A stretch of DNA of 64,000 nucleotides from a virus, in the IMG/VR virus record IMGVR_UViG_3300023296_001674. One strand, written 5' to 3'. The translations under genes and the position numbers were made by a program. Below, one piece after another: positions 2,910 through 56,425 of the stretch (position 1 is its first letter; each line of letters starts with the position of its first letter). The notes beneath the pieces were generated by a model. It was not told the origin of the DNA. It saw only the letters and a program-made list of their open reading frames with translations, and did no database searches.

Positions 2910-2913
2910 GGCA

Positions 2914-2921
2914 TATAAATA
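2914..2921 (+). promoter_or_regulatory. T4 late-type promoter box TATAAATA
   Basis: Exact TATAAATA ends 3 nt before the ATG of the 2925 structural gene. Confidence 0.45.
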
Positions 2922-2924
2922 TAA

Positions 2925-3227
2925 ATGGCTTCTTCAATAATAGAAACAGACCCACAATCAGGTATAGATCAACCAGCATCAGTTGTTAGAAATAATTTTG
3001 TTCGAGCGAAAATCGAAATAGAAGAGTTGCAGGATGAAAAAATTAATAAATCAGGCGACACTATGTCAGGATTGTTAAAACTTGCTGCCTTAAATATTGC
3101 TGAACTCCCCGATCCAGCAACAAACTTAGCAGGTATTGCAGTAGTAACAGACTCTGGCCCTAACCCTATTCCAGTTTATAGTAATGGTATAGCTTGGCTT
3201 AAATTTTCGGATGATTCTGCTATATAA
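2925..3227 (+). CDS. small structural/adaptor protein sharing the N-terminal GIDQP...NF module with the preceding fibre-like protein
   Basis: N-terminus SGIDQPASVVRNNFVRAKIEIEEL parallels AGIDQPSDGYRDNFNNIKISL of the upstream ORF. Late promoter directly upstream. Confidence 0.4.
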   Translation: MASSIIETDPQSGIDQPASVVRNNFVRAKIEIEELQDEKINKSGDTMSGLLKLAALNIAELPDPATNLAGIAVVTDSGPNPIPVYSNGIAWLKFSDDSAI

Positions 3228-3228
3228 A

Positions 3229-3257
3229 TTGACATTAATACAGTAATCATGTAGTAT
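3229..3257 (+). promoter_or_regulatory. sigma70-type early promoter (TTGACA-N17-TAGTAT) containing the ATGTAGTAT word
   Basis: TTGACA at 3229-3234, 17-nt spacer, TAGTAT at 3252-3257. The MazG-like gene starts at 3290. Confidence 0.5.
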
Positions 3258-3289
3258 TCATCAAATAATTAAACTAAAGGTGAATAATA

Positions 3290-3727
3290 ATGACTGATTT
3301 AAACAATACATTTAAACAATATCAAACATTCGTAGAGGGTGTAACTAGTGAAACAAGTAAAGATACTGAAATGTTTCAAAAACGCATTACAGAATTAGAA
3401 CAAGCTGGTATTAATTTTGCAGAATTTGATACTGCTATTGCTGGCATCGGCGGTGAAGCGGGTGAGATTGGCGATTTATGGAAAAAATTAAAATATCATG
3501 GTAAGCCATGGAATGAAGAAAATAGACAAAATTTTATTGACGAAGCAGGAGATATGTTTTGGTATCTAGCAAAATATATGCAATCATTGAATATCACGAT
3601 AGAAGAAGTATTAGATAGAAATGTTGCAAAATTAGAATCGAGATATCCCGGTGGAACTTTTTCAATAGAACGATCAGAAGTTCGTGATAGAGAAATTGAT
3701 CCGAGTTACGAAGGTAAAAATACATAA
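3290..3727 (+). CDS. mazG: MazG-like nucleoside triphosphate pyrophosphohydrolase
   Basis: Two EExxE-type metal-binding helices (EAGEIGDLWKK and EEAGDMFWYLAKY) typical of the all-alpha NTP-PPase fold. SD AAAGGTGA upstream. Confidence 0.65.
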   Translation: MTDLNNTFKQYQTFVEGVTSETSKDTEMFQKRITELEQAGINFAEFDTAIAGIGGEAGEIGDLWKKLKYHGKPWNEENRQNFIDEAGDMFWYLAKYMQSLNITIEEVLDRNVAKLESRYPGGTFSIERSEVRDREIDPSYEGKNT

Positions 3728-3740
3728 GAGGTATTTAAAA

Positions 3741-4025
3741 ATGCATCCAGGTTTAGAAAAAGAAAAAGCAAGCGAAATGTCTATAGAAGATTGTCACGAA
3801 AAGATAACTGAAATAGATAGACGCATGGGAATAGCATATCAATTAACGCACACTGACGTATTGCCGCAAATGCGATTATTAAAAGAGCATTATCAAATGA
3901 TAATAAAAGATAAAATGGACGCAGAGATGCAAGAAATGATAGATTCTGATCCTAAACTTGGACGCACCGTTATTGATATAGATTGGCCCGATCCTGCTGA
4001 TGAAGAAGATGAAGACACGTTTTAA
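3741..4025 (+). CDS. hypothetical acidic protein
   Basis: Listed ORF 3684-4025 trimmed to the first ATG after the MazG stop. SD GAGGTA precedes it. Confidence 0.4.
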   Translation: MHPGLEKEKASEMSIEDCHEKITEIDRRMGIAYQLTHTDVLPQMRLLKEHYQMIIKDKMDAEMQEMIDSDPKLGRTVIDIDWPDPADEEDEDTF

Positions 4026-4026
4026 C

Positions 4027-4056
4027 TTGACAGGTGTATAACAAATATATTATATT
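4027..4056 (+). promoter_or_regulatory. sigma70-type early promoter (TTGACA-N17/18-TATATT)
   Basis: TTGACA at 4027-4032 and TATATT around 4050-4056. SD AAGAGGAT and GTG/ATG start at 4081/4084. Confidence 0.45.
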
Positions 4057-4080
4057 TGTTAACTCTAAAAGAGGATAAAA

Positions 4081-4296
4081 GTGATGACAAAAGTTTCACA
4101 TGTTGTATTGAGTGCAGAAGACCAAACCAAGAAAGATATCGAATCTTTAAAAACTATATTTACTGAACATGGTATATCGATTGGGTTAAATATTTTACAT
4201 AATGCATGGTCATATAGTTTAATAGAACAATGCCATATCAATCAAAGTGTTGTACACGCAGTAGATGAATATAATACATCAGTAACGGATAAATAG
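4081..4296 (+). CDS. hypothetical protein
   Basis: 71-aa ORF directly downstream of promoter and SD. Stop overlaps the next gene start by a TAGTAGTG junction. Confidence 0.35.
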   Translation: MMTKVSHVVLSAEDQTKKDIESLKTIFTEHGISIGLNILHNAWSYSLIEQCHINQSVVHAVDEYNTSVTDK

Positions 4297-4298
4297 TA

Positions 4299-4835
4299 GT
4301 GATTAAAGAGTTAAAAGATAGATATATTGATGATATAGGCAGGGTGATAATGACCACCGATGGTCTTATTGATATGTTAATGAAGCAACAATCAATCGAA
4401 GGTTTATTGGTTGAAGAATGTGACGACACACTTAAATATAATACAAATATCGATAACAACAAACAGTTAGAAATATACTCAGACGAGAAAGCGAACGAAA
4501 CACCTGATATATATGATTCAATTGCCACAACTAGGTGGAAAACACCAGAGAAATATCAAATTGCAGATGATGCATTAGTAACGTGGTTATTTGAGAAATG
4601 TAAATCTGAAAATGAATACAACAGAGTTTTAATGGAATTAGAAATGTTTGATGATCGTGGGTTATATCCATTACTTAAACATTTAATATTTTTGGTAGAT
4701 CATTTTAGAAAAAACAATATTGTATGGGGTATAGGGCGCGGATCGAGTGTTTCATCATATATTTTATTTCTCATTGGAATACACAGAGTTAATTCGATTG
4801 ATTTTAATTTAAACATCAACGATTTTTTAAAATAA
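4299..4835 (+). CDS. DNA polymerase III alpha (DnaE)-like palm-domain fragment (no PHP, no catalytic Asp pair, no fingers)
   Basis: C-terminal 70 aa (LYPLLKHLIFLVDHFRKNNIVWGIGRGSSVSSYILFLIGIHRVNSIDFNLNINDFLK) aligns with the DnaE segment GYFLIV..F...AK.[39 protein letters not shown]. The ORF stops right before the position of the catalytic PDIDIDF motif. Confidence 0.55.
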   Translation: MIKELKDRYIDDIGRVIMTTDGLIDMLMKQQSIEGLLVEECDDTLKYNTNIDNNKQLEIYSDEKANETPDIYDSIATTRWKTPEKYQIADDALVTWLFEKCKSENEYNRVLMELEMFDDRGLYPLLKHLIFLVDHFRKNNIVWGIGRGSSVSSYILFLIGIHRVNSIDFNLNINDFLK

Positions 4836-4846
4836 GGAAAAATTAA

Positions 4847-5209
4847 ATGGTAAAAAGACATAAAAGTGCTAAAGGTGATCAAATAGATTTTGATCTTTTG
4901 CAACTTAATAATAAAGAAGTGGTAGCCATTGGTAATGCCAGCATGAATGCAAACGGCGATACATTAGGAAGGGGTGGAGTAATTGTTCGAAAAGTAGACG
5001 ATATCCCCAAATCACAATTAGCAGACCCTAATGCAGCATACAATCAACAAAATCCAAAATCGACTAAATTAGTTAGTTTAAAGAGTGCAGTTGTAGTTGA
5101 TGACGTTGTTGTAGAAGCGACACCCGAAGTGGTGGTTGAAGAAACAGTCGTTGATGAAATCGAAAAAAAGCAAAAATCTAAAAGAAAAATAATTGACAGC
5201 GAAGAGTAA
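4847..5209 (+). CDS. hypothetical protein, possibly the degenerate continuation of the DnaE-like fragment
   Basis: Begins KGDQIDFDLLQ, reminiscent of the DnaE catalytic PDIDIDF region that would follow the upstream fragment. Rest is Val/Glu-rich and non-diagnostic. Confidence 0.35.
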   Translation: MVKRHKSAKGDQIDFDLLQLNNKEVVAIGNASMNANGDTLGRGGVIVRKVDDIPKSQLADPNAAYNQQNPKSTKLVSLKSAVVVDDVVVEATPEVVVEETVVDEIEKKQKSKRKIIDSEE

Positions 5210-5222
5210 AATGTAGTATACT
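5193..5222 (+). promoter_or_regulatory. sigma70-type early promoter (TTGACA-N18-TATACT) with AAATGTAGTAT word
   Basis: TTGACA at 5193-5198 and TATACT at 5217-5222. Gene starts at 5255. Confidence 0.45.
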
Positions 5223-5254
5223 TCATTATAATAAAGTATTAATGGAGTATACAA

Positions 5255-5644
5255 ATGGCTACCGATTTTGATTATAGTACAACTGGTGTATTAACACCAA
5301 TTCGCGATCATGTTATAGTTACAGAAATGGACAACGAAGATGAGCGAATAGTTAACGGCATCATTCTGTTAAGTGAAACAGGATCAGACCGTGGCATCCA
5401 CCCAAGACAAGCATATGTAACCGCAGTAGGGCCAGATCAATCAGATGTGGCACCCGGCGATTGGATATTGGTCGAACACGGACGATGGACACGTGGTGTA
5501 AAATTAGACGATGGAAATATATATCGCAAAGTTGACCCATCTTGCATATTGGGAATAACTGGCGATAAGACTGACGATCTTCAGGTAATGGGCGACAAAG
5601 TTGTTAATAATTCTAGACATAATATGGGCGGGTTTGACGAATAA
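5255..5644 (+). CDS. 31: GroES-like co-chaperonin (T4 gp31-like)
   Basis: TPIRDHVIV...GIILLSETG...VTAVGPDQSDVAPGDWIL matches the GroES/gp31 pattern (LPIRAVGEYVILV...GLIIG...VVHSVGPDVPEG..EVGD). Confidence 0.55.
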   Translation: MATDFDYSTTGVLTPIRDHVIVTEMDNEDERIVNGIILLSETGSDRGIHPRQAYVTAVGPDQSDVAPGDWILVEHGRWTRGVKLDDGNIYRKVDPSCILGITGDKTDDLQVMGDKVVNNSRHNMGGFDE

Positions 5645-5695
5645 ATCAAACGATTATACCAGTAAGTTATAACCCCCAATAAAGAGAAATAAAGT

Positions 5696-6619
5696 ATGTC
5701 AATTAAAGAATTATGGACCGAAAAATATCGTCCAAAACGAATCGAAGATTATGTATTTCGTGATGAAAAACAGAAAAAACAAATAGAAGCATGGGTTTCA
5801 GAAAAAGCAATACCACATTTGCTATTATCTGGCACCCAAGGTATCGGCAAAACAACAATCGCGAAGGTTTTATTTCGTGAATTAGAAGTTCCACCAGAAG
5901 ATATATTAGAGTTGAATGCCAGTGATAACACTGGTGTTGACGATATGAGAAATCGCGTTGGTAGTTTTGCAAGCAGAATGCCATTTGGTGAATTTAGATA
6001 TATTTTATTAGATGAAGCAGATTATTTAACACCTAACTCACAAGCAGTATTGCGTGGATATTTAGAGAAATATTCGGCAACCTCGAGATTTGTGTTGACC
6101 TGCAATTACGATTATAAAATCATACCAGCATTGAAAAGTAGAACGCAAGGGTTTCATTTAGAAAAACTTGATCGTGGTGAATTCGATATTCGAATTGCTA
6201 CCATATTGGCGTCAGAAGGCGTTGAATTTGATGCATCACTTATGGATTCATTTATTGAAGCCACATATCCAGATTTGCGCAAGTGTATTAATGATTTACA
6301 ACAAAACGTCGTTGATGGAATATTGACATTACCAGTGGTAAGTTCAGGCAATGATGATTATAAAATATTAATGGTTGAATTGTTTAAAGATAAAAAAATA
6401 AGAGAAGCAAGAAAATTGATTTGCACACAAGCAAGACCAGAAGAATATGATGATATATATAGATTTTTATATCAAAACTTGCAATATTTTGGTAATGAAC
6501 AAAATCAAGAAACTGCCATTATTAAAATAAAAGAAGGTTTGGTTAATCACGCTATTTGTGCCGATCCTGAAATAAATCTTGCCGCTACAATGGTAGAACT
6601 AGGATATTTGATGGAATAA
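5696..6619 (+). CDS. 44: sliding-clamp loader ATPase subunit (T4 gp44 / RFC small-subunit-like AAA+)
   Basis: N-terminal EKYRPKRIEDYV, Walker A LLLSGTQGIGKTTIAKVL, Walker B ILLDEADYL, and RFC-box-like SRFVLTCNY. Confidence 0.8.
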   Translation: MSIKELWTEKYRPKRIEDYVFRDEKQKKQIEAWVSEKAIPHLLLSGTQGIGKTTIAKVLFRELEVPPEDILELNASDNTGVDDMRNRVGSFASRMPFGEFRYILLDEADYLTPNSQAVLRGYLEKYSATSRFVLTCNYDYKIIPALKSRTQGFHLEKLDRGEFDIRIATILASEGVEFDASLMDSFIEATYPDLRKCINDLQQNVVDGILTLPVVSSGNDDYKILMVELFKDKKIREARKLICTQARPEEYDDIYRFLYQNLQYFGNEQNQETAIIKIKEGLVNHAICADPEINLAATMVELGYLME

Positions 6620-6665
6620 TCATGAAAGAAAACGAATAGTTACACAAAAAACACGAGGACATGAT

Positions 6666-6998
6666 ATGAAATTAGTTATTATAGAAAGCCCATTCGCCGC
6701 CCCCACCGATGAAGGTGTTCAAGAAAATATTATATATGCAAGGAGATGCGTTCGTGATAGTCTTGACAAAGGTGAAGCACCAATAGCATCACATTTGCTT
6801 TATACGCAAGATGGTATATTAGACGATACGATACAACATGAACGCGATTGGGGCATAAATGCCGGATTGGCGTGGCGGAAAGTGGCTGAAGGATCGGTTG
6901 TATATACTGATAAAGGTATAACAAAAGGAATGGAATATGGCATTAAAGCCGCAGAAAGTTCTGGTATATCGGTTGAATACCGAAAACTCGATAATTAA
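6666..6998 (+). CDS. DUF4406-like / nucleoside 2-deoxyribosyltransferase-fold protein
   Basis: MKLVIIESPFAAP... start and C-terminal pattern S.GI..E...A...GISV typical of that Rossmann-like family. Weak call. Confidence 0.35.
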   Translation: MKLVIIESPFAAPTDEGVQENIIYARRCVRDSLDKGEAPIASHLLYTQDGILDDTIQHERDWGINAGLAWRKVAEGSVVYTDKGITKGMEYGIKAAESSGISVEYRKLDN

Positions 6999-7012
6999 AA
7001 AGGATAAAATAA

Positions 7013-7441
7013 ATGGTTTTTTCAAAATATGACAAAGGTCGCCCATTTTTGGTGGTAACACAAAATTCAAGACCCGCAGAAGGCGAGAATACTTCAACAA
7101 AAAACTGGGGCAAAACTGGCAAGAAAGTAATACAAGAAATGGTTTCAATTGTTGATACCGTCAAAGATAAGCATCTTTTCGAAGCCGCAGTTATTGTTGA
7201 TGTTTTACAACGACGCATCGTTAAATCAAGATTTTCTGATGATAATAGCGCCACATTAACTCATTATTTGACACAATACAAAAAAGAAATTGCTGAAGGT
7301 ATTCAGGTTTGGATGAGTAGACAATATGAAAATCAAGATGAAGCCCAAGCATTCATGGATAATCTTGATTCAGAAATAGTAAAAATGGATGTACCAACTG
7401 ATATAGTGGATGTAGTACCAGATGAAACAGTTAGCGAATAA
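7013..7441 (+). CDS. hypothetical protein
   Basis: 142-aa ORF preceded by SD AAAGGATAAAATAAATG. No recognisable motifs. Confidence 0.4.
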   Translation: MVFSKYDKGRPFLVVTQNSRPAEGENTSTKNWGKTGKKVIQEMVSIVDTVKDKHLFEAAVIVDVLQRRIVKSRFSDDNSATLTHYLTQYKKEIAEGIQVWMSRQYENQDEAQAFMDNLDSEIVKMDVPTDIVDVVPDETVSE

Positions 7442-8042
7442 TATAATACTTTGCGATATCGATGGATGCTTGCTAAATTGGCTTGATTCATTCATTGATT
7501 ATATGAAAACCCAATGGGGCTATACATGGAACCATGAATTGGGTGAGCCACATCAATATGATATGGCACCACATTTTGGAATAACACATGACGAAGTTGT
7601 TATACATATAACAAACTTCAATGTTGGGTTCTGGCAGTTTGGTGCGTTAAAACCGACTGATGGTGCACAGGATGCTATGATTAAACTTTCTGATATGGGA
7701 TATAGATTTGTTGCTATCAGCAGTTGTTCCACTGATAATAGAACTGTTGCACTTAGAAAAGCAAATTTATATAATCATTTTGGTGATATATTCGATGATG
7801 TGCACTGTATTGACATACATGAAAACAAAAAATCATACTTAACAAAGCATCAACCAACGTTTTGGATTGAAGATAATTTCAACAATTGCGTTGATGGATT
7901 GCAGTATGGTCACAATTGTATACTTGTAAATAGAAATTGGAACGAAAATGATCATCATGATGAAATAACTCGATTTGATGAATGGTCGCAAATAGTTGAT
8001 TTCATTGGAGAAAATAAAAATTTTAATAAAGTCCGCACTTAA
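7422..8042 (+). CDS. HAD-superfamily 5'(3')-deoxyribonucleotidase-like phosphatase
   Basis: N-terminal IILCDIDGCLLNW is the DxDx(T/V) HAD motif I in the form seen in 5'(3')-deoxyribonucleotidases. Confidence 0.55.
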   Translation: MKQLANNIILCDIDGCLLNWLDSFIDYMKTQWGYTWNHELGEPHQYDMAPHFGITHDEVVIHITNFNVGFWQFGALKPTDGAQDAMIKLSDMGYRFVAISSCSTDNRTVALRKANLYNHFGDIFDDVHCIDIHENKKSYLTKHQPTFWIEDNFNNCVDGLQYGHNCILVNRNWNENDHHDEITRFDEWSQIVDFIGENKNFNKVRT

Positions 8043-8121
8043 TAGCACCCAATATTAGACTAAATACTATTAGGTTGAATGGCCGTTCGCCGCTTTCTTT
8101 TAACATAAGCAAAGGAGCATT

Positions 8122-8874
8122 ATGGTGACTAGACATAAAGCGAAACATAAAAAAAACAACCAAGGAAATCAACGATCTAACGATAATATCGTTAATATCA
8201 ATGATTATAAGACCCCAACGAAGAGTAGAAAGACAAAAGTAGATATTATACCACGAAATGAAGCACAGGAAGATTATATTTTCGCAATAGAAGATTGCAG
8301 AGTTGTGTTTGGTGTTGGCCCTGCTGGCACCGGTAAAACATATATTCCGACATTGATGGCAATCAAATCCCTTAAAGCAGGCGAAGTTGAAAAAATTGTA
8401 ATGACTCGACCGATGGTAAGCGTGGATGAAGATATAGGTGCATTGCCAGGTGCATTGCCAGGTGATATTGTGGCAAAAACTGCACCATGGGCTAGACCCA
8501 TTGTTGATATATTAGAAGAATTTTACCACCCAACTCAAATAGCATCAATGATGGAATCGGGAATTATAGAATTTTCACCATTAGGATTTATGAGAGGTAG
8601 AACATTTAAGAACAGCTTTATCATCTTCGACGAAGCACAAAATGCTACCGTATCGCAGATGAAAATGGTATTAACACGGATTGGTCAAGGAAGTCAGATG
8701 GTTATTATTGGCGACTTGAACCAACATGACAGAGGATTTGAGGCGAATGGCCTTAAAGATTTTATTGATCGTTCTATTAATTCAGAAAATATCGACGTAA
8801 TCGAATTTAGCAGGGGTGACATTGAGCGCGACGAGGTTGTTGCAGATGTTCTAGAAATTTACGGCGAAGAATAA
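8122..8874 (+). CDS. phoH: PhoH-like ATPase
   Basis: Walker A VFGVGPAGTGKTYI, Walker B IIFDEAQN, plus the characteristic PhoH core (MTRPMVSVDEDIGALPG, IIGDLNQ). Confidence 0.85.
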   Translation: MVTRHKAKHKKNNQGNQRSNDNIVNINDYKTPTKSRKTKVDIIPRNEAQEDYIFAIEDCRVVFGVGPAGTGKTYIPTLMAIKSLKAGEVEKIVMTRPMVSVDEDIGALPGALPGDIVAKTAPWARPIVDILEEFYHPTQIASMMESGIIEFSPLGFMRGRTFKNSFIIFDEAQNATVSQMKMVLTRIGQGSQMVIIGDLNQHDRGFEANGLKDFIDRSINSENIDVIEFSRGDIERDEVVADVLEIYGEE

Positions 8875-9933: not shown

Positions 9934-11284
9934 TATGACATCAAGTGAATATATTTTAGATACATCAAAAGAATATTCTATATACACTTGCCACAAGCGC
10001 GGAATCCCAAGAGTCACCGATGGGCTAAAAAATGGTCAACGGCAAGCATTATGGCTTATTAGAAACAAAACAGAAAAAATAAAAGTTATTGCACTAGCGG
10101 GTGCAATGATTGAATCTGAATTATATCTTCACGGTGATAAATCTGCCGCTGATTCGATATCAAAACTTGCTGCACCTTTTTGTAATAACGTTCCTTATCT
10201 TGTTGGAAAAGGAAACTTTGGAACACGTGTATCACCCGTTGGTGGTATTGGTGCGCCAAGATATGTTTCAGTCAAAAAAGGCCAAGCAGTCGAACGGTTG
10301 ATATATCCTGATTTGGACATAGTTCCATTAATGGATAATCACGATGGTTCAACCAAAGAGCCTGAAACGTTCCTTCCTATCATTCCCACCGTTCTATTAA
10401 ATGGGGTAGCAGGAATTGCCGTAGGTTGGTCAACTGATATCCTGCCACATAAGTTAGAAGATTTAATAAAGGCTACCAAAGCAGCACTAGAAGGCAAGAA
10501 AGTGCCTAAATTGATACCATCATATGATTATTTTGATATCACAGTCAAAAAAGTTCCAGGTGTTGAAAATTCTTGGGAGTTTACTGGAAAAGTGGAAATC
10601 ATTAGCACAAGTGTCGCACGAGTTACCGAGTTACCGCCAGATTTGACATTAGAAAATTTTAGAGCACAGTTAGCACAAATGGAAGATAATGGCGCAATTA
10701 TGGATTATACTGACAAATCCACGAAAGCAATCAATATCGAAATTAAATTCAGACGTGGTTCACTTAAAGATATGTCACCTGAACAATTAATTGATACTCT
10801 TAAATTGAAATCTCGAAAAAAAGAACGCATCGTTGTTATTGATTGGGATGGACAAGCAATTCGCACATATGATAATCCCGAACAAGTTGTGGTTGATTTT
10901 GTTGCGTGGAGATTTACAAAATATATTGAACGTTATGAAAAATTGCGAGATGTAACTAATAGTGAAATAAAATTTTGGAAGGGTGTGCAAATGTGCTATC
11001 TTGATGATCTACCAGATAGATTAACAAAAATGGCAAACAAAGCGGAAATGGACAAAGAAATTCAAGATATAACAAAATCAGTCAAATTATCTGACGCACA
11101 GATTGATCGTATTTCGAATTTTGCATCATATAGATGGACTAAAGATGGATATAAACAATGTGTTGAAAAAATACATGAATTAGAACAACAATATAAAGAA
11201 TATATTAGATTGTTAAAAAATCCTGATGATATCAAAGATATTTTCATTGAAGAAATAGATGCATTAAAAAAGGTTAAGTTCTAA
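9893..11284 (+). CDS. 52: DNA topoisomerase II medium subunit (T4 gp52-like, GyrA-N-like, active-site Tyr region)
   Basis: CHKRGIPRVTDGLKNGQRQALW (cf. GyrA RAIPDVRDGLKPVQRR) and an APRYVSVKK Tyr motif. True start may be an internal ATG at 9914, 9923 or 9935; 9935 would just clear the upstream stop. Confidence 0.75.
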   Translation: MEQILQEMKYMRRDMTSSEYILDTSKEYSIYTCHKRGIPRVTDGLKNGQRQALWLIRNKTEKIKVIALAGAMIESELYLHGDKSAADSISKLAAPFCNNVPYLVGKGNFGTRVSPVGGIGAPRYVSVKKGQAVERLIYPDLDIVPLMDNHDGSTKEPETFLPIIPTVLLNGVAGIAVGWSTDILPHKLEDLIKATKAALEGKKVPKLIPSYDYFDITVKKVPGVENSWEFTGKVEIISTSVARVTELPPDLTLENFRAQLAQMEDNGAIMDYTDKSTKAINIEIKFRRGSLKDMSPEQLIDTLKLKSRKKERIVVIDWDGQAIRTYDNPEQVVVDFVAWRFTKYIERYEKLRDVTNSEIKFWKGVQMCYLDDLPDRLTKMANKAEMDKEIQDITKSVKLSDAQIDRISNFASYRWTKDGYKQCVEKIHELEQQYKEYIRLLKNPDDIKDIFIEEIDALKKVKF

Positions 11285-11526
11285 TGAGCGATCCACACAA
11301 ATATATAATAACATATGGGCCATGCACGGGCAATCCATCCAATCATTTAAATTTTCAAAAAAAACATGACGGAAATAAAGTGAAAGAAATAAATGACACA
11401 CATGGATTGAATGTCAAAGTTGAATATGATATGGAATTTCATGGTAATGATCTTCATACACTTACCGTTATATACAGTTCGGATGAAGAATCAGATTTGG
11501 TTGCATTTAAATTGTTAACAATATGA
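11284..11526 (+). CDS. small protein, divergent member of the AFKL(R/K)W C-terminal family (ends ...VAFKLLTI)
   Basis: C-terminal DLVAFKLLTI. ATGA-type overlaps with both neighbours. Confidence 0.4.
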   Translation: MSDPHKYIITYGPCTGNPSNHLNFQKKHDGNKVKEINDTHGLNVKVEYDMEFHGNDLHTLTVIYSSDEESDLVAFKLLTI

Positions 11527-11786
11527 CATTTGAAATAATAGATGCAGATGGTACCAAACCGCAATATATCGACGGCAAAGAAATATATGGATGCACACAT
11601 TATGTTGATTTTGACGGATATGTAAAAGACAAATATGATTGGATGCTTGACAATGTTGCCTTATGGTATTATGATGTTCAGCACGAGCCAATGGATAGAA
11701 ACGGTGATTGTGGCGGTGGTGAATTATTGACAATATATTTTACTACGATTGAAGACGCGATGGCGTTTAAATTAGCATGGACTTAA
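11523..11786 (+). CDS. AFKLRW-family small protein
   Basis: Internal DWMLDNV (W-x-x-x-N motif) and C-terminal EDAMAFKLAWT immediately before the stop. Confidence 0.5.
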   Translation: MTFEIIDADGTKPQYIDGKEIYGCTHYVDFDGYVKDKYDWMLDNVALWYYDVQHEPMDRNGDCGGGELLTIYFTTIEDAMAFKLAWT

Positions 11787-11790
11787 CGAA

Positions 11791-12039
11791 ATGGTGTTAA
11801 AGAATATGAAAAAACAATATGAATATATGTTTTATGGCGACAATTATGATTTCGAAGATGTTCGCGAAATAGAAGAATGGTGTGTGGAAAATATTGTTGA
11901 CATTAATGATTGGTGGTTTGATGAAAAAATAACAAGACATTCTGAAGGTATTAATTATATTGGCACTCAATATGAATATGTATTTGGCTTCAAACACGAT
12001 ACAGATGCAATGGCATTTAAAATATTATGGGTTTTTTAG
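11791..12039 (+). CDS. AFKLRW-family small protein
   Basis: EEWCVENIVD motif and C-terminal TDAMAFKILWVF-stop. Confidence 0.5.
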   Translation: MVLKNMKKQYEYMFYGDNYDFEDVREIEEWCVENIVDINDWWFDEKITRHSEGINYIGTQYEYVFGFKHDTDAMAFKILWVF

Positions 12040-15791: not shown

Positions 15792-15994
15792 CAACATTAT
15801 TGCGCGAAGGAATCAGAGATAATGCCGGTGTGGCATCAACACTTGCTTTACATCGATTAGGGTTTCCTGACGTCACCAGTGTCCTCATTGGTAATACTTA
15901 TGAATTTGATTACGAAGGAGACGTTGACGAAATCGTAAAAGAGTTGTATAATCCAGTAATGGAAGATTATACAGTGGAGGTTATTGAAGAATGA
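15776..15994 (+). CDS. hypothetical small protein
   Basis: 72-aa ORF overlapping its neighbours by 16 and 4 nt (coupled arrangement). Confidence 0.35.
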   Translation: MRYRVTTLLREGIRDNAGVASTLALHRLGFPDVTSVLIGNTYEFDYEGDVDEIVKELYNPVMEDYTVEVIEE

Positions 15995-16338
15995 AAGTAT
16001 ATTTAGATGATTATCGTAAAATACCAGATGACACTTGGACTTTGGCTACGTCATATCAAAACTTTAGACATGTTATTGAAGATGGCGATGAAGAGATAAC
16101 TGAAATATCATTCGACCACGATTTGGGGGTAGATAGTAGCAACCATGTAGCCTTAACAGGCATGGATGCAGTTAAATGGCTAATCAGCCATATAGAATGC
16201 TTTGCACCAGAATTAAATAGATCATTAAAAGCCATATATGTTCATAGTGCAAATCCAGTTGGTGCAGAAAATATACGTTCATACTGCAAAAGCGCACAAA
16301 AGCACGGAATTTTAAATATGGACGTGGTCGTTAAATAG
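15991..16338 (+). CDS. hypothetical protein
   Basis: 115-aa ORF with ATGA overlap to the upstream gene. Confidence 0.4.
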   Translation: MKVYLDDYRKIPDDTWTLATSYQNFRHVIEDGDEEITEISFDHDLGVDSSNHVALTGMDAVKWLISHIECFAPELNRSLKAIYVHSANPVGAENIRSYCKSAQKHGILNMDVVVK

Positions 16339-22517: not shown

Positions 22518-22594
22518 GGGCGTGTATTCCAACCGGTAGAGAAACGAGACTTAAAATCTCGACAGTGTGGGTTCGAATCCCACCACGCCTACCA
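22518..22594 (+). tRNA. tRNA with anticodon UAA (Leu by anticodon) but short 5-nt variable loop (class I architecture); CCA encoded
   Basis: Hand-folded cloverleaf: acceptor GGGCGTG/CACGCCT (G1-U72 wobble); D-loop with GG; anticodon stem CGAGA/TCTCG; loop CUUAAAA; T-arm GTGGG-TTCGAAT-CCCAC; discriminator A then CCA. Confidence 0.7.
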
Positions 22595-22598
22595 CATA

Positions 22599-22676
22599 GC
22601 TTCCGTCGTCTAACTGGATAAGGCACCCGACTTCTAATCGGGATATTTGTAGGTTCGAGTCCTACCGGGAGCACCA
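22599..22676 (+). tRNA. tRNA-Arg (anticodon UCU); CCA encoded
   Basis: Acceptor GCTTCCG/CGGGAGC; D-stem GTCT/AGGC with AACTGGATA loop; anticodon stem CCCGA/TCGGG; loop CUUCUAA; T-arm GTAGG-TTCGAGT-CCTAC; A73-CCA. Confidence 0.8.
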
Positions 22677-23783: not shown

Positions 23784-23812
23784 TTGACAAACCTTATTTT
23801 CTCCTATAATAT
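23784..23812 (+). promoter_or_regulatory. sigma70-type early promoter (TTGACA-N15-TATAAT / N17-TAATAT)
   Basis: TTGACA at 23784-23789 and TATAAT at 23805-23810. Heads the operon containing the FliG/FliM-like genes. Confidence 0.45.
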
Positions 23813-23841: not shown

Positions 23842-24021
23842 ATGTTTGATATTTTAGAAGATGCATTTGATATTTTAACTGCGCCAATTCGCAACACGGT
23901 TGATGTACTTGAAGGATTGTCGGAAGGCGAACTTCGAACGCATGCTATTGCGCAACTTGGTTCGAGTGCGGTTGCGGGTTTGGAAGCATATGAAATCATT
24001 GAGCTATTGTTGGAAGATTAA
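23842..24021 (+). CDS. small acidic helical protein (59 aa; possible FliG N-terminal-like fragment); missed by the 60-aa ORF cutoff
   Basis: Strong RBS AAGGGAGAAATAATATG. LEGLSEGELRTHAIAQL loosely resembles the FliG_N segment FKYLSQEEVESLTFEIAKL. TAATG overlap with the next gene. Confidence 0.35.
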   Translation: MFDILEDAFDILTAPIRNTVDVLEGLSEGELRTHAIAQLGSSAVAGLEAYEIIELLLED

Positions 24022-24257
24022 TGGCAAAAGTTATTTTACGCGAACCAGTAGATGTAATACGTTGGTGGCCGGGGGGCGACGAAATTGAAAATGTTACCGA
24101 GGTTCGTCATACTCAACTAGGATTTATTGGTCATTTGCAACAAGATGGAAATACGCTCATGGTAAAACCTGGTGATTATGTATTGTCATTTCTTGGAAAG
24201 CAAATAATAATGAATGAAGAAATTTTCAAAATCAACTTTAAAGGTCACAAAGAATGA
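24021..24257 (+). CDS. small beta-rich protein, possible FliN/SpoA-like domain
   Basis: LMVKPGDYVLSFLGKQIIMNEEIFKIN weakly resembles the FliN core L.L.VGDVI.LD.....V.L.VNG..IA.GE.V. Weak call; context-driven. Confidence 0.3.
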   Translation: MAKVILREPVDVIRWWPGGDEIENVTEVRHTQLGFIGHLQQDGNTLMVKPGDYVLSFLGKQIIMNEEIFKINFKGHKE

Positions 24258-24646
24258 ATCAAGATATATGGGATCGATTAGATAAAGTTAGCACATTCAG
24301 GCTTACTTCATATTTGAAAAATGAATATCCACAAGTGGTTGGTGTCATTCTTTTCAATTTGTCTAGGAAAACGGTTGCTGGTGTAATGGATGAATTACCA
24401 GAAAATTTTGCTATGGAAGTTGTAATGCGTATGTTGCGCACGGATGATGTTCGCAAGGAAGTTATTGATATCATTGAAGACACATTACAGGATGAATTTT
24501 TTAATAATGTAGTCACTTATGACAATAAAGAAAAATTTATAGGTGATATGTTCGATGTTATGGTTCATTCTGATCACATGGTAGAACAGCTTGAAGAACG
24601 CAATCGTGAAATGGCTGAAAAAGTTAAGGGGTATATGGACACATGA
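24254..24646 (+). CDS. FliG middle-domain (FliG_M) homologue
   Basis: YLKNEYPQVVGVILFNLSRKTVAGVMDELPENFAMEVVMRMLRTDDV aligns residue-by-residue with E. coli FliG [47 protein letters not shown] (EHPQ box, AA.IL, DVMLRIA). Only ~130 aa, i.e. the middle domain alone. Confidence 0.6.
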   Translation: MNQDIWDRLDKVSTFRLTSYLKNEYPQVVGVILFNLSRKTVAGVMDELPENFAMEVVMRMLRTDDVRKEVIDIIEDTLQDEFFNNVVTYDNKEKFIGDMFDVMVHSDHMVEQLEERNREMAEKVKGYMDT

Positions 24647-25161
24647 TTAATCAATCTATGATAGAAGCATTAATACCGACAATGAAGAACACTGCATTTA
24701 AAGGTATTTGCACTAATCCAGATATTCAACTTGATAATTTGGCACTTATGACATTTGGTGAATATGTTGATACAATACCGCTTCCTGCAATGTGTTGTAA
24801 GTTTGATTTTGCTGGATATGCTGCATTTATCATATTTGATAGTTCATTGATATATTCTATGGTTGATGTTTTATCTGGTGGTCGTCGTGGCACCGCTGCA
24901 ATGCGAATTGAAGGCAGGGGATATACAACAATTGAAAAGCGCATTATTAAAGAATTAGTAATGGAATCAATTGTGAATGAGTTATTGTATGAACTCAATA
25001 TATTATCAAAAGATATATATATGGAAATAGAACATATAAGTCTCAGTCCAGATAATATGAGAAAGCAATTATCTGAAAATGAAATGGTTCAAATTGCACG
25101 AATGAGAGTAGACTTGGATGACCGTGGTGGTCGTTTCGAATTATGCGTTGAAGAACATTAA
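24643..25161 (+). CDS. FliM middle-domain (CheC-like) homologue
   Basis: AFIIFDSSLIYSMVDVLSGGRRG...EGRGYTTIEKRIIKEL...GGRFELCVE parallels FliM LVVFSPSLVFIAVDNLFGGDGR...EGREFTHTEQRVINRM...GEFNICLP. N-terminal SMIEALI resembles the FliM LSQAEIDALL peptide. No FliN-like C-terminal domain. Confidence 0.6.
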   Translation: MINQSMIEALIPTMKNTAFKGICTNPDIQLDNLALMTFGEYVDTIPLPAMCCKFDFAGYAAFIIFDSSLIYSMVDVLSGGRRGTAAMRIEGRGYTTIEKRIIKELVMESIVNELLYELNILSKDIYMEIEHISLSPDNMRKQLSENEMVQIARMRVDLDDRGGRFELCVEEH

Positions 25162-38535: not shown

Positions 38536-38564
38536 TTGACAAATATGCATTATTGACGTATATT
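38536..38564 (+). promoter_or_regulatory. sigma70-type promoter (TTGACA-N17-TATATT)
   Basis: TTGACA at 38536-38541 and TATATT at 38559-38564. A TTG (38553) or ATG (38571) start follows. Confidence 0.5.
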
Positions 38565-38570
38565 ATATCT

Positions 38571-39416
38571 ATGAAAAAATATTATGAAACATTAGAAGTC
38601 GAAAAAACAGCAACCGATGCCGAAATTAAAAAATCGTATCGCAAGTTGGCTATGAAATATCATCCTGATACAAATCCCGATGATGTAACAGCCGAAAATA
38701 ATTTCAAAGAAATAAATGAAGCATATGAGGTTTTATCCGACGAAACGAAAAAATCTAACTATGATACATTTGGCGATCCTGATGGTAGACCTACACCACA
38801 CACTAGCCAGCACGGTTTTGGTGGTGGTTTTCAATCAGCAACAGATTTTAATGATATTTTCAATGATATTATGAATGCACGAAGTGCACCAAAAAATGCT
38901 CATGCACAATCACAAATGACTATTACATTGGAAGAGGCGTATGTAGGATCATCAGTTGAGATAGAAATAACTAATCATAAAAATATATCATCAAAGCAAA
39001 ATATAAGAATTCCCGCTGGTATTAAACATGGTATGACGTTACGCCTTGCGGGTGCCGGTCATCATCACATTGAGGAGTTGCCACCCGGTGATTTATTGGT
39101 TAATATACAAATCACACCACATTCCATATTTACTGTGGTAGATTACAATTTAATCATGGAAGAAAAAATTAGCATGATCGAAGCCGTGTTTGGCAAGGAA
39201 ATAGAAGTTACTACATTGGCTGGAAAAACTTTGAAATTAGAAATTCCAAAAGGAACGCAACCAAATCATAAAATTCGATTAAAAGGTAAAGGAATGCCCG
39301 TATTAAACAGAAAAGATGTATTTGGTGATTTATATATAATTGTCAATGTTGAAATACCTACGAATATAACACAAAAACAACGAGATTTATTAAGTGAATT
39401 TAATGAAGTTTCTTGA
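38571..39416 (+). CDS. dnaJ: DnaJ/CbpA-like J-domain co-chaperone (no Cys-rich zinc-finger region)
   Basis: J domain YYETLEVEKTATDAEIKKSYRKLAMKYHPDTNPDD with HPD tripeptide. Gly-rich linker GFGGGFQ. DnaJ C-terminal beta-domains. Listed ORF begins at TTG 38553. Confidence 0.75.
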   Translation: MKKYYETLEVEKTATDAEIKKSYRKLAMKYHPDTNPDDVTAENNFKEINEAYEVLSDETKKSNYDTFGDPDGRPTPHTSQHGFGGGFQSATDFNDIFNDIMNARSAPKNAHAQSQMTITLEEAYVGSSVEIEITNHKNISSKQNIRIPAGIKHGMTLRLAGAGHHHIEELPPGDLLVNIQITPHSIFTVVDYNLIMEEKISMIEAVFGKEIEVTTLAGKTLKLEIPKGTQPNHKIRLKGKGMPVLNRKDVFGDLYIIVNVEIPTNITQKQRDLLSEFNEVS

Positions 39417-39473: not shown

Positions 39474-40004
39474 ATGATAGAAATTGTTTTAGAAGATGAT
39501 CCAGCATTAAAAATTGTTGTGCCACTATATGATTTTGACGAGCCGTTGAATATTGTAACTACACAAGATGAATTCGGTTTAACTGAATTCATTGATGCTA
39601 TGTTTGTGACCATGAAATTGAATAAAGGTCTCGGTTTGGCGGCTAATCAAATAGGACAAAACGTTCGCGTATTTGTTATGGATTTTTACGGCGAAGAATT
39701 TATTTGTATCAATCCAATAATTGAACAGTCATCAACAGAATTTACAATAGATCAAGAAGGCTGTTTAAGTTTTCCAGATTTATCATTAAATGTAAAACGA
39801 TCATCTGAAATATTTGTATCGTATTCAAATATCGATGGCGTTGAAATTCAAAGATGGTTATCTGGTATTACAGCTAGGTGTTTTCAACATGAACTAGATC
39901 ATTTGAATGGGATAACATTCGATTCACAAGTTGCAAAGCTAAGTTTAAAAATGGCTAAAGACAAAAGAAGAAAAAAAATAAAACAAAAACAAAGGAATAC
40001 CTAA
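39474..40004 (+). CDS. def: peptide deformylase
   Basis: Three PDF motifs: GLGLAANQIG (GxGxAAxQ), EGCLSFPD (EGCLS) and QHELDHLNG (HExxH). Confidence 0.8.
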   Translation: MIEIVLEDDPALKIVVPLYDFDEPLNIVTTQDEFGLTEFIDAMFVTMKLNKGLGLAANQIGQNVRVFVMDFYGEEFICINPIIEQSSTEFTIDQEGCLSFPDLSLNVKRSSEIFVSYSNIDGVEIQRWLSGITARCFQHELDHLNGITFDSQVAKLSLKMAKDKRRKKIKQKQRNT

Positions 40005-42263
40005 ATGCCTAACGGATTTGACCAACGACACATTTCTATAATGCTTCAAAAAGCAGTAACATTAGCAGAAAAATACGATCACATATATATAACATTAGAA
40101 CATATCAGTTTAGTATTACTGGATGATAAGTCCGTTGATCACGGTATTAAAGAATGCGGCGGCGACATAAAACTTATTAAAGAAATGGTTTTGACTGCAT
40201 TGTTAGATGAAGCAGATATAACTGAAGCAGGAACTGAGCCACAACCAACAAGAGCAGTCATCAATGTTATTCAACGGGCAATCCAGCATTCTGTTGGATC
40301 AGGCCGCAATACAGTTGAACCATTTTATCTTATGGCAAGTTTGTTAATGGAAAAAGATTCCGTTGCTGTATGGGCATTAGCACAACAAAATGTTGATCGT
40401 GTAAGTTTTATTAGAACTATAAATGTTCCACCATCAGGACAAAATAAAGGTGGCCCGATGAATGAACTCGATCCTATAACGGGTCAACCTATGCCACAAC
40501 CTGAAAATGCATTAAGAGATTATTGTGTTAATTTGAATGAAAAGGTAATTGCTGGTGATATTGATCCATTGATAGGTCGCGAAAAAGAAATTGAACGGTC
40601 ACTACAAGTTTTATCTAGACGACGCAAAAACAATCCATTGCTTGTTGGTGAGCCAGGAGTTGGTAAAACCGCTATTGCAGAAGGATTGGCATGGAAAATT
40701 GTTAATGAAACCGTGCCAAATTATATCAAAGATTCTATTGTATATTCGTTGGATATTGGTGCACTTATGGCTGGTGCCAAATTTCGCGGTGATGTCGAAG
40801 AACGATTAAAAGCGGTTCTTGCCGGATTGGAAGAAGTTGGCAAAACCAACAAAACCATATTATTCATTGATGAAATTCATACCATTATTGGTGCGGGTGC
40901 TACATCAGGTGGAAGTATGGATGTTAGTAACCTATTGAAACCCGCACTTGCTGCTGGTTCATTACGTTGCATGGGTTCCACCACATATGCTGAATATAAT
41001 AAGTATTTCGAAAAAGATGCGGCACTTAAGCGTCGTTTCAAAAAAATTGATATTATTGAACCTACTGTTGATGAAACAAAAACTATTATCAAAGGTTTGG
41101 CAAAATATTTTGCTGAGTATCATGAAGTTAAATTCACAAAAGAAGCATTAATGAGTGCAGTTGATTTATCCGTTAAGCATATACACGATAACAAACTTCC
41201 AGATAAAGCGATTGATGTTATTGATGAGGCGGCGGCAGCACAAAGATTATTCGATGGCGAAGATCGCCTTGAAATCATTGATGTTAAACAAATTGAAGAA
41301 ACCGTTGCAAAGATTGCAAGGATTTCTATTGATGCAACATCAAAAACCGACAAAGATAGATTGCGTAACCTTGCAGAAAATCTAACAACACATGTGTTTG
41401 GTCAAGAAGAAGCGATTGATGTTCTAACCAAGGCAGTTAAATTAAGCAAATCTGGATTGCGTGAAGAAAATAAACCGATTGGTAATTTCTTATTCAGTGG
41501 ACCTACAGGCGTAGGTAAAACCGAAGTTGCAAAACGTCTTGCCGATGAACTAGACGTTCCGTTGGTGCGATTTGATATGTCTGAATATATGCAAAAGCAC
41601 GAAGTGTCTAAACTTATTGGATCGCCACCTGGTTATGTTGGTCATGATGATAGTGATGGATTTTTAATTGAAGAAATTGATAAGCATAATTATTGTGTTT
41701 TATTGTTAGATGAAATCGAAAAAGCACACCAAGATATATTCAACGTTCTGTTACAAGTTATGGATAATGCAACACTAACCGGTGGTCGCAATAAAACAGT
41801 GCGCTTTGACAATGTTATAATCATCATGACATCAAATGCTGGTGCATCAGACCTTGCAAAAGAAGTTATGGGATTTGGCAACGAAGAGCGAGTTGGCGAT
41901 GATCTTATAGCCATCGAAAAATTATTTACACCTGAATTTAGAAATCGTTTGGATAAAATCGTTGGATTTAAACCATTACAACAAGAAATAATGAATAAAG
42001 TTGTTGTTAAATTTATAAAACAATTGAAAGTTCAACTTAAAACACAGGATGTTAAACTTACGTTGATGAAGAAAGCCATTGAGTGGCTTGCCGTTAAAGG
42101 ATACAGTTCCAAATATGGAGCACGACCACTTTCGCGTGTAATAGACAATCATATCAAGCAGCCAATATCTGAAGAGTTATTATTTGGTCAACTTGAAAAT
42201 GGTGGTTCAGTTAAAATTGACATCGTTGAAGACGAACTTGAATTCACTTACAAACCAAAATAA
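40005..42263 (+). CDS. clpA: ClpA-like double-ring AAA+ unfoldase (Clp N-domain, D1, D2; no ClpB middle domain)
   Basis: Collinear with E. coli ClpA: [44 protein letters not shown] (D1), [14 protein letters not shown]2 Walker [33 protein letters not shown] tripeptide sits at the IGL-loop position. Confidence 0.85.
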
Positions 42264-43043: not shown

Positions 43044-43823
43044 ATGAAATTTACATTTCTAGGTGCAGGTAGCGCATTTACGATGGAAAACTATCAATCT
43101 AATATGATAGTGACATCAGATTCTGGAAAAAATTTATTAATTGATTGCGGTGGCGATGTGCGCCATAGTATGAAAGCGGCAGGATTTGGCGTAGCCGATA
43201 TTGATGCGATATATGTCAGTCATCTACATTCAGATCACACTTCTGGAATCGAATGGTTGGCGTTTAATACATATTTTAATGATGCCTTAAAACAACCAAA
43301 AATGTTTATCAATGAAAAACTTTCACGTGAACTTTGGGAAAATACACTACAAGGTGGACTTGGAAGCATACAAGGAAAAATAACCACCCTTGATTCATAT
43401 TTTGAAGTTACTCGTGTTATAAAAAACAAATGTTTCATTTGGGAGGATATTGAATTTAGACTCGTTCAAGTGATTCATTATATGGATGGATTTGACATTG
43501 TTCCATCATATGGTTTGTTGTTTACAGTGAATGGATTGAGATATTTCTTAACTACTGATGCTCAACATGCTCCTTCGCAAATTCAAGATTTTTACAACAT
43601 GAGTGATGTTATCTTTCAAGATTGTGAAACTACCCCGTTTGCATCCGGTGTTCATGCGCACTATGAAGAACTTATAACACTTAATGAAGAAACAAAAGCC
43701 AAAATGATACTATATCATTATTCAGATGGCGACAAGAAAGATTGCACCAACGATGGATTTAGATGTTGGGCAACAAATCAAATGGAAATTGATTTAAATA
43801 CAGGAACGGTAATTAACGCATGA
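43044..43823 (+). CDS. metallo-beta-lactamase-fold hydrolase (RNase Z/ElaC-like candidate)
   Basis: HxHxDH motif in VSHLHSDHTSG plus downstream His/Asp ligands (HYMDG, DCETT, HYSDGD). Confidence 0.6.
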   Translation: MKFTFLGAGSAFTMENYQSNMIVTSDSGKNLLIDCGGDVRHSMKAAGFGVADIDAIYVSHLHSDHTSGIEWLAFNTYFNDALKQPKMFINEKLSRELWENTLQGGLGSIQGKITTLDSYFEVTRVIKNKCFIWEDIEFRLVQVIHYMDGFDIVPSYGLLFTVNGLRYFLTTDAQHAPSQIQDFYNMSDVIFQDCETTPFASGVHAHYEELITLNEETKAKMILYHYSDGDKKDCTNDGFRCWATNQMEIDLNTGTVINA

Positions 43824-56330: not shown

Positions 56331-56425
56331 ATAAAGTAGTGGGACAGCCCAACTTCCTTGGCGGGTTTTAGTTGTTGAAACCAACTAATTACCACTATAT
56401 CTATTTATTTTTTGGAGTTAAAATC

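Follow-up and report, generated by a model that had tools for sequence, protein, structure and literature searches.

Truncated FliG and FliM homologues of the flagellar switch are encoded as a coupled gene pair by a huge phage

The DNA analyzed here (the window) is a 64,000-nucleotide stretch of viral DNA, IMG/VR record IMGVR_UViG_3300023296_001674, and the subject of this work is a pair of adjacent genes within it that are related to the flagellar rotor switch. The first, open reading frame 1 (ORF1; 24254..24646, plus strand), encodes a protein of 130 amino acids (aa), FliG', to which ARM_M, helix_MC, and ARM_C are assigned. The second, ORF2 (24643..25161, plus strand), encodes FliM' (172 aa), which comprises nothing but the CheC-fold middle domain, running from helix alpha1 through the final beta-strand. 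The end of FliG' and the start of FliM' overlap in the sequence ATGA (24643..24646, plus strand), which couples the two genes. The positions and the overlap were found as given in a preliminary description of the locus. It is nearly certain that the two ORFs are phage-borne, host-derived copies of alphaproteobacterial fliG and fliM, cut down to the core of the C-ring.

In Pfam profile searches, FliG' matched FliG_M (PF14841) with an E value of 5.4e-17 and a score of 62.2 bits (gathering score, 25), and FliM' matched FliM (PF02154) with an E value of 2.8e-22 and a score of 80 bits (gathering score, 27) over profile positions 19-180/192. Both E values lie below 1e-3, the limit that the preliminary description had set for its domain assignments. 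Against full-length families the scores were low, as expected for fragments. FliG' covered positions 113-238/338 of TIGR00207 fliG (NCBIfam) with 36.7 bits against an equivalog cut-off of 226.7, and FliM' covered positions 55-214/320 of TIGR01397 fliM with 70.4 bits against a cut-off of 219.6. The two proteins are fragments derived from FliG and FliM and not orthologues of them, since they pass at the domain level and fail at full length.

A phmmer search of the Protein Data Bank (PDB) with FliG' returned the FliG structures 3HJL, 4FHR_B (6-121), 1LKV (14-129), 3SOH_B, and 4FQ0_C. The protein spans residues 14-129 of Thermotoga maritima FliG in 1LKV, up to the Met of the MFxF hinge. Compared with alphaproteobacterial FliGs, it extends from the conserved MWDKL through the same Met, and its C terminus, AEKVKGYM-DT followed by the stop codon, aligns with AEKVKSQMFTFADL. 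The alignment to 1LKV and the coverage of TIGR00207 to position 238 place ARM_C within the protein. The earlier view that ORF1 is the FliG middle domain alone thus holds for the FliG_M homology but not for the boundary; judged from its alignments, ORF1 is ARM_M, helix_MC, and ARM_C, which is more than FliG_M. Within ARM_C, three helices were predicted at residues 92-128 with a predicted local distance difference test score (pLDDT) of 59-74, and 8/22 conserved positions are kept.

Two functional parts of bacterial FliG are missing from ORF1. The FliF-binding N domain is absent, because the protein starts at the bacterial MWDKL, TIGR00207 position ~113 and residue ~108 of full-length FliG. No in-frame upstream extension of ORF1 was found, and the upstream ORF lies in another frame and is unrelated. 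The C-terminal Calpha1-6 torque subdomain, which meets MotA, is also absent, because the protein extends no farther than the Met of the MFxF hinge; a Pfam match to FliG_C, with an E value of only 0.031, is below threshold. The AlphaFold2 model of FliG' (pLDDT, 75.8) superposed on 4QRM_D, 3SOH_B, and 4FQ0_C at 1.1-1.3 Å with a template modeling (TM) score of up to 0.87 (Foldseek), and it aligned over ~125 residues with FliG of C-ring cryo-electron microscopy structures.

For FliM', a sequence search of the PDB returned the FliM structures 7DM9, 8UMD_C (Salmonella FliM residues 70-218), and 4FQ0_B. The AlphaFold2 model (pLDDT, 80.9) matched FliM of the C-ring structures 8UMD_C, 8UMX_C, and 9N49_M with TM scores of 0.83-0.84 at 2.1-2.2 Å over 170-172 residues. 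In the Foldseek ranking, the E values of FliM structures were better than those of CheC, CheX, and FliY by roughly five orders of magnitude. A reading of ORF2 as a phosphatase of the CheC/CheX/FliY type, acting on phosphorylated CheY (CheY-P), was rejected; the motif D/S-x3-E-x2-N-x22-P is absent, even its E-x2-N part, and the fold ranking favors FliM.

The protein begins at helix alpha1 of the FliM middle domain, with MINQSMIEALIPTMKN aligned to MLEVVFDRLVRMMST, and ends just before the LPYATLEP linker. No Pfam match to the FliN-like C-terminal domain (SpoA, PF01052) was found in ORF2, which bears out the earlier assignment of a middle CheC-like domain that lacks a FliN-like C terminus. In contrast, the suggestion that the N-terminal SMIEALI is a CheY-P-binding peptide was not borne out. 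SMIEALI aligns with helix alpha1 (bacterial MLEVVFDRLVR), whereas the real peptide, LNQDEIDSLLGF, lies ~35 residues farther upstream in full-length FliMs and is not in ORF2; a regular-expression search of ORF2 for LSQxEIDxLL found none. The associated idea that FliM' could soak up CheY-P through this peptide is likewise not supported.

As had been anticipated, the pair retains the motifs through which FliG_M and FliM_M contact each other. The GGXG motif of FliM and the EHPQR motif of FliG form a conserved FliM_M-FliG_M contact (PMC7355467), and the roles of ARM_M-ARM_C stacking, the MFXF hinge, and FliG_N-FliF co-folding are those given in the same paper. In FliG', the EHPQ part is present in its alphaproteobacterial EYPQ form (E24-Y25-P26-Q27; codons 24323..24334, plus strand), and the Arg of the motif is R59 (codon 24428..24430, plus strand), within the invariant FAMEVVMRM helix. 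In FliM', the GGXG-type loop reads GGRRG (G79-G80-R81-R82-G83; codons 24877..24891, plus strand). EYPQ and R59 are invariant in the FliG alignments (A1 and A3), and GGRRG 79-83 is invariant in the FliM alignments (A2 and A4).

Conservation is strongly regional. In ORF1, 21/25 bacterially invariant positions are kept in the EYPQ and FAMEVVMRM helices versus 21/53 elsewhere, and within residues 48-62, which include R59, all of the bacterially conserved positions are kept (10/10). In ORF2, the corresponding counts are 44/54 in segments 38-50, 66-99, and 157-167 versus 11/68 elsewhere; block 66-99, which contains the GGRRG loop, keeps 28/32 bacterially conserved positions. The loop and the block around it, GGRRGTAAMRIEGR.YT.IE, are identical to alphaproteobacterial FliM.

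The closest homologues of FliG' are alphaproteobacterial FliGs (e.g., from Rhodopila, Elioraea, and Acetobacteraceae), with 40-45% identity over the shared region and with the EYPQ variant of EHPQ and the FAMEVVMRMLRM helix in common. Those of FliM' are alphaproteobacterial FliMs at 36-43% identity. An exhaustive HMMER search of 1.84 billion representative proteins found nothing nearer than these bacterial homologues. The bacterial FliMs of the match set are ~85% identical among themselves, which puts the phage FliM' on a very long branch, and ORF2 is the most diverged of the FliMs compared (27-36% to all others). Because of this long branch, a neighbor-joining tree of the FliM middle domain did not resolve a single clade of phage copies; therefore, neither one capture nor several is claimed.

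The exact FliG' and FliM' proteins were found on six contigs in European Nucleotide Archive (ENA), Joint Genome Institute (JGI), and Logan assemblies. The greatest length, ~570.5 kb, belongs to ENA contig ERZ27315719 k141_202852, and four of the six are longer than 200 kb. Two contigs that different assemblers had produced match the window at 100% identity across 12.6 and 20.5 kb, stretches that include both junctions. The window carries several phage hallmarks, namely, a T4-type clamp loader, split topoisomerase II subunits, PhoH, homing endonucleases, a virion structural protein, and DNA methyltransferases. The source genome, that of a huge phage of ~570 kb, has replication genes of the T4 type but is not that of a conventional T4-like phage, and the earlier label needs this correction. 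Among cultured phages, those closest by topoisomerase II and ClpA, at 42-48% identity, are two jumbo phages that infect Alphaproteobacteria, namely, Agrobacterium phage Atu_ph07 (490 kb) and Sinorhizobium phage Phosso (469 kb).

The two genes are composed like the core phage genes, with a GC content of 34%, a GC content at third codon positions (GC3) of 29%, and a codon adaptation of 0.70 for ORF1 and 33%, 22%, and 0.74, respectively, for ORF2. Phage-only families with no assigned function directly flank them, phrog_13459 upstream and phrog_10141, which is not FliN, downstream. No further flagellar genes were found in the 64-kb window of the ~570-kb genome. Given the phage-like composition, the identical junctions, and the phage-family flanks, the FliG' and FliM' genes are native to the phage. 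They are also host-derived genes of a phage, for they lie in a phage genome, have a phage-like composition, and have their closest homologues in cells.

The chance that bacterial fli DNA was mis-assembled into, or mis-binned as, phage DNA had to be weighed, since such cases have precedents. A published comment argues that the 'jumbo phage' PhiMa05/MaAM05, with its flagellar motor cluster, is bacterial (PMC13623518), and Microcystis phage MaAM05 was not retained as a credible phage case. In the 'Bacteriophage sp.' record MT835480 (L003; MT835480.1 38488-48838), the whole FliF-FliG-FliH-FliI operon is bacterial DNA. The Listeria phage LM 4-14-1 and 4-11-1 records, with FliG on fragments of 3.6-15 kb, are not credible phage cases either. 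The ordinary bacterial fli genes in the MT835480 and Listeria records are probably contamination of the phage collection. For the window pair, however, an artefact of this kind is extremely improbable. Composition and codon usage match those of core phage genes, the genes sit in a co-directional, overlapping string between phage-family genes, and the junctions are identical in assemblies from different pipelines, with four contigs above 200 kb among them. In addition, the pair has a truncated architecture and differs by 55-64% from any bacterial gene, and the surrounding 64 kb holds no other flagellar gene.

The pair closes a translationally coupled string of four genes, which is preceded by two tRNA genes and an endonuclease-like gene on the minus strand. 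In this string, the first gene encodes 59 aa (23842..24021, plus strand) and belongs to phrog_13459 (E=3.2e-11). It overlaps by one base with a 78-aa ORF (24021..24257, plus strand) of no assigned function, for which Pfam gave nothing and the PHROG match was weak (phrog_14585). This second gene in turn shares an ATGA overlap (24254-24257) with the start of FliG'. In the gap between the minus-strand gene and the string lies a weak candidate sigma70-like promoter, TTGACA-17-TAATAT (23784..23812, plus strand), with 10/12 consensus matches. Such sites are common, since 44 were found against 27 expected in a scan of this AT-rich DNA, and the AT richness makes the scan uninformative.

The window also encodes translation and proteostasis genes of the type found in huge phages. 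These include SmpB, the tmRNA partner (26640-27083; Pfam SmpB, E=7e-54), two aminoacyl-tRNA synthetase (aaRS)-like proteins, one of class I (tRNA-synt_1e; 49372-50673) and one of class II (tRNA-synt_2b plus HGTP_anticodon; 56372-57643), peptide deformylase (39474-40004), DnaJ (38553-39416), a ClpA-like ATPase (40005-42263), and tRNA-Leu(taa) plus tRNA-Arg(tct) (22518-22676). In the window, ARAGORN detected no tmRNA gene. Shortly after the fli pair come a DUF2201_N putative metallopeptidase (26174-26611) and a DUF2333 protein (27472-28503; E=8e-91), the latter from a family said to be conserved among bacteria. At a distance of ~8 kb upstream from the pair, adjoining a PurS-like gene, a small protein (15991-16338) has a precomputed match to cREC_REC (PF20274), a receiver-like domain. 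A metallo-beta-lactamase-fold protein (43044-43823) has a precomputed match to Anti-Pycsar_Apyc1 (PF23023) and is a candidate anti-defense cyclic-nucleotide phosphodiesterase.

Related fli modules, all of alphaproteobacterial type, occur on other phage-type contigs (labeled L005 to L013). On L012 (17.8 kb, with a T4 30.3-family protein, PrkA-DUF444-SpoVR, and ClpP), a 133-aa FliG' is ATGA-coupled to a FliM of 468 aa, followed by FliN. This FliG' starts and ends as ORF1 does, yet the two are only 37% identical. On L005/L006 (27 and 14 kb; GC, 30%; with a gp31-like co-chaperonin, ribosomal protein S21, and an HNH endonuclease), a 197-aa FliG' without the N domain is followed by FliM (413 aa) and FliN. 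L011, a 3.2-kb contig, encodes FliG' (206 aa), FliM (464 aa), and FliN, and L013, a 2-kb contig, encodes a FliG' that ends just past ARM_C and a FliM-FliN fusion. In each of L012, L005/L006, L011, and L013, the N-domain-less FliG is immediately upstream of and coupled to FliM, and the overlap at the junction is ATGA in L012 and L005 and TAATG in L011.

Two further loci carry the domains in a single chain. L010 (65.8 kb, with a large terminase) encodes one 644-aa FliG_M-FliM-FliN protein (10001-11935; P0255), the gene for which adjoins the terminase. L009, a 2.2-kb GC-rich contig, encodes one 454-aa FliG_M-FliM_M protein (655-2019; P0288) after a PTH2 peptidyl-tRNA hydrolase gene; this fusion comprises exactly the window's two domains. 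Finally, the 543-kb phage IMGVR_UViG_3300024239_000011 encodes a full-length FliG (L007, 7683-8699; N+M+C) adjoining a tail-fiber homologue, with FliM and FliN (L008, 5100-6768) ~240 kb away. Its FliG is 69-82% identical to bacterial FliG, and its genes seem to have been captured later, or to have changed less, than the window's pair.

The FliF-binding N domain of FliG is gone in 6/7 lineages, and the common denominator of the modules is FliG_M plus FliM_M. The window pair is the most reduced and most diverged version among the lineages compared. No gene directly flanking the fli module is common between loci, and what the window has in common with L005 is limited to scattered genes (a methyltransferase at 48% and the co-chaperonin at 42%). 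The contigs L009, L011, and L013 are too short to show a viral origin independently. On L012, an additional observation is a minus-strand PrkA - DUF444 - ClpP - SpoVR cluster at 2882-8279, resembling the YeaG/YeaH/YcgB stress module, and the same contig also has an eIF-1a-like gene.

The sister FliMs keep the N-terminal CheY-binding peptide and the FliN-like domain, with a separate FliN, and a complete FliM plus FliN occurs in L005, L008, L011, and L012. Several of them also carry a long acidic N-terminal extension, namely, those of L012 (10001-11407; P0252), L013 (P0261), L011 (P0250), L005 (9611-10852; P0249), and L008 (5100-6470). The first helix of this extension is almost identical to the N-terminal helix of Caulobacter PopZ (QEPSMEQILASIRRIISED versus QEPTMEEILASIRRIISED of PDB 6XRY; E=0.003). 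After the PopZ-like helix come extra copies of the alphaproteobacterial motif 'E(E)RLAAEWAA(L/M)' and then the normal CheY-binding peptide. Judged by this match, the extension of the sister FliMs looks like a graft of the PopZ helix, which ORF2 does not have. A literature search for the ILASIRR motif found no papers.

With these versions in hand, the window pair might be seen as decaying, functionless remnants of a once full-length phage fliG and fliM. The two proteins are indeed shorter than the versions in other phages, and the nearest relative is only 36-45% identical, so the ratio of nonsynonymous to synonymous substitution rates (dN/dS) cannot gauge purifying selection. However, the ORFs are intact and are cut cleanly at structural domain boundaries and not at random. 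The FliG' of L012, which is 37% identical, has the same boundaries, and that of L013 has almost the same ones. Moreover, conservation is concentrated in particular regions, the coupling and the ribosome-binding context are preserved, and both proteins give confident folded models. Decay is accordingly a very unlikely explanation.

The more complete modules bear on a different explanation, in which phage-made parts maintain or re-tune the motor. In this case they would keep the host motor running after host shut-off, as cyanophage psbA does for its own process, or alter the sense of rotation or CheY control. FliM and FliN are known to exchange in working motors, which speaks for such a role. 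The complete FliM, with its CheY-binding peptide, and the FliN of L005, L008, L011, and L012 fit such a role, as does the full-length FliG of the 543-kb phage, and the sole mention of a viral FliG in the literature files it under motility. For the window pair, the difficulty is that FliG' lacks the FliF- and MotA-binding parts and FliM' lacks the FliN- and CheY-P-docking parts, so that neither can stand in for a functional subunit; the N domain by which FliG is anchored in the rotor is also missing in 6/7 lineages. Maintenance is more attractive for the sister lineages with complete FliM and FliN than for the window pair, for which we regard it as unlikely.

The coupled genes, the retained mutual interface, and the single-chain FliG_M-FliM_M and FliG_M-FliM-FliN proteins would also suit an exapted heterodimer. 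Here, FliG' and FliM' would bind only each other, as a scaffold or adaptor for a non-flagellar phage process, or would sequester a non-motor ligand of the switch, such as a cyclic di-GMP (c-di-GMP) brake protein, a CheY-like regulator, or a metabolic enzyme. The exceptional divergence of ORF2 (27-36% to the others) and the strong divergence on would-be host-contact surfaces are in line with this. On the other hand, the host-type interface residues (EYPQ, FAMEVVMRM, and GGRRGTAAMRIEGR) are kept, as expected if host partners must be recognized, whereas a private pair could drift by compensatory change. In addition, no candidate for an alternative partner was found in the gene neighborhood. An exapted heterodimer is thus rather doubtful.

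Instead, we tentatively favor a reading in which FliG' and FliM' are soluble decoy or poison subunits that uncouple or block the host C-ring, although on sequence and modeled structure this falls somewhat short of an even chance. The parts removed from the pair are the FliF anchor (FliG_N), the MotA-facing Calpha1-6 of FliG, the CheY-P docking peptide (FliM_N), and the FliN-like base (FliM_C). The loss of the FliF-binding N domain in 6/7 lineages argues against incorporation of the proteins into the rotor by the usual route. Under this proposal, the two proteins would be made in about equal amounts from their coupled genes, early or midway in infection, and would probably be soluble, with calculated isoelectric points (pI) of 4.6 and 4.7 and no membrane or secretion features noticed. 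FliM' would take the EHPQR site of host FliG_M. FliG' would take the GGXG site of host FliM, would stack on host FliG through its ARM_M and ARM_C, or would do both. Alternatively, a FliG'-FliM' heterodimer might act jointly and engage host FliG by ARM stacking.

The engaged host subunit would then be severed from the MS ring, the stator, CheY, and FliN with the export platform, and the infected cell would lose switching, rotation, new flagellar assembly, or several of these. Plausible gains for the phage would be the exclusion of flagellum-dependent phages, the sparing of progeny from adsorption to doomed cells, and the saving of proton-motive force and export capacity. A variant in which the pair is a decoy against Zorya, a MotAB-like defense, was set aside by reasoning, as the MotA-facing subdomain of FliG is exactly what FliG' lacks.

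Several points weigh against action on the host C-ring. Co-made FliG' and FliM' with an intact mutual interface may saturate each other and spare the host proteins, and the FliG_M-FliM_M fusions fit mutual binding at least as well. ARM_C and helix alpha1 of FliM, surfaces needed to enter the host ring, are the least conserved parts. The other lineages with a full FliM plus FliN, and the one with a full FliG, fit supply or remodeling of the motor at least as well. That the host is flagellated is something we infer solely from its relatives' hosts, as indicated by the nearest cultured phages, and from the alphaproteobacterial character of the genes. Finally, the conserved regions of ORF1 and ORF2 were picked after viewing the alignment, which makes the Fisher p-values for them descriptive only.

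Taking the lineages together, N-less FliG and FliM, to which FliN, a PopZ helix on FliM, or both may be added, could constitute an undescribed, recurrent host-takeover module of large and huge phages of flagellated Alphaproteobacteria. Such a module would take over, take apart, or redirect the C-ring, and perhaps the cell-pole organizer as well, and the window pair would be its irreducible core, a dominant-negative rotor fragment. We hold this broader view as tentatively as the decoy proposal, as a possibility not quite amounting to a probability.

Homologues of the flagellar switch had been thought undescribed in phages, and this largely held. The FliG' and FliM' proteins had no PHROG family, no credible counterpart in 50,697 deposited phage records, and no structural match in BFVD. 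Megablast and tblastn searches of deposited phages and an IMG/VR scan with ORF2 or a FliM alignment gave no close relatives, and the window phage itself is absent from the collections so searched. In the literature searched, no phage proteins targeting FliG or FliM were found and the sister FliG'-FliM(-FliN) modules were not described, and an overview of 224 jumbo-phage genomes does not mention flagellar genes. The part that did not hold concerns one river virome, in which 'FliG' appears in a passing, automatically derived listing as a putative auxiliary metabolic gene (AMG) for motility (PMC12993620). Two other leads proved false. The 127-aa 'FliG_M-only' protein P0126 comes from a frameshifted gene in a normal bacterial flagellar operon with 70% GC, and an 'Astrovirology' paper matched the word 'flight' only.

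In the window, familiar domains thus appear in an architecture and a setting that are new, conserved, and specific to phages. FliG' shares with bacterial FliG the ARM_M fold, the EYPQ...R motif, the FAMEVVMRM helix, helix_MC, and ARM_C. In contrast, it has 130 aa instead of ~338, has neither FliG_N nor Calpha1-6, has no flagellar operon around it, and is far more diverged than bacterial orthologues are from each other. FliM' likewise shares the CheC-like middle fold and the GGXG-type loop with bacterial FliM, but it has 172 aa instead of ~330-400 and lacks the CheY-P peptide and the FliN-like domain. Nearly the same fragments as those of the window have been crystallized as FliM_M-FliG_M(C) complexes (3SOH, 4FHR, 4QRM, and 4FQ0), and both models superpose on them. 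However, the crystallized fragments are laboratory truncations, whereas those of the window arose naturally, are encoded by a phage, and have been conserved in evolution.

The YcgR/PilZ brake and the EpsE clutch are soluble host proteins that act on FliG. The outcome proposed here would be the same, but those proteins have unrelated folds, whereas in this case the effector would be a phage-encoded fragment of the rotor itself. Pseudomonas phage proteins Tip and Aqs1 act on type IV pili, with superinfection exclusion. By analogy, FliG' and FliM' may fall in the same category, that of phage inhibitors of a motility organelle that doubles as a phage receptor, although the organelle is different, the proteins are unrelated, and here the activity is predicted from genes. 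No flagellar equivalent of Tip or Aqs1 was found in the literature searched.

Few molecular machines have been studied as thoroughly as the flagellar motor, and flagella are important receptors for phages. So far, no phage component or inhibitor made from the rotor's own switch proteins has been characterized. The window pair can serve as a positive control for separating genuine phage-borne flagellar genes from bacterial contamination in 'phage' records. If FliG' and FliM' do act on the host C-ring, they would also be natural, minimal, soluble FliG_M/FliM_M binders for probing subunit exchange, ring assembly, and switching. The recurrent truncation in phages that are ~35-40% identical, together with the single-chain fusions and the PopZ-helix graft, makes the question directly testable in Agrobacterium, Sinorhizobium, and Caulobacter. 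Such action would amount to a new phage route for controlling swimming, chemotaxis, flagellar assembly, and superinfection. The recurrence of these genes in several uncultivated phages suggests that phages tamper with the swimming motor of their hosts in a way that has not been described.

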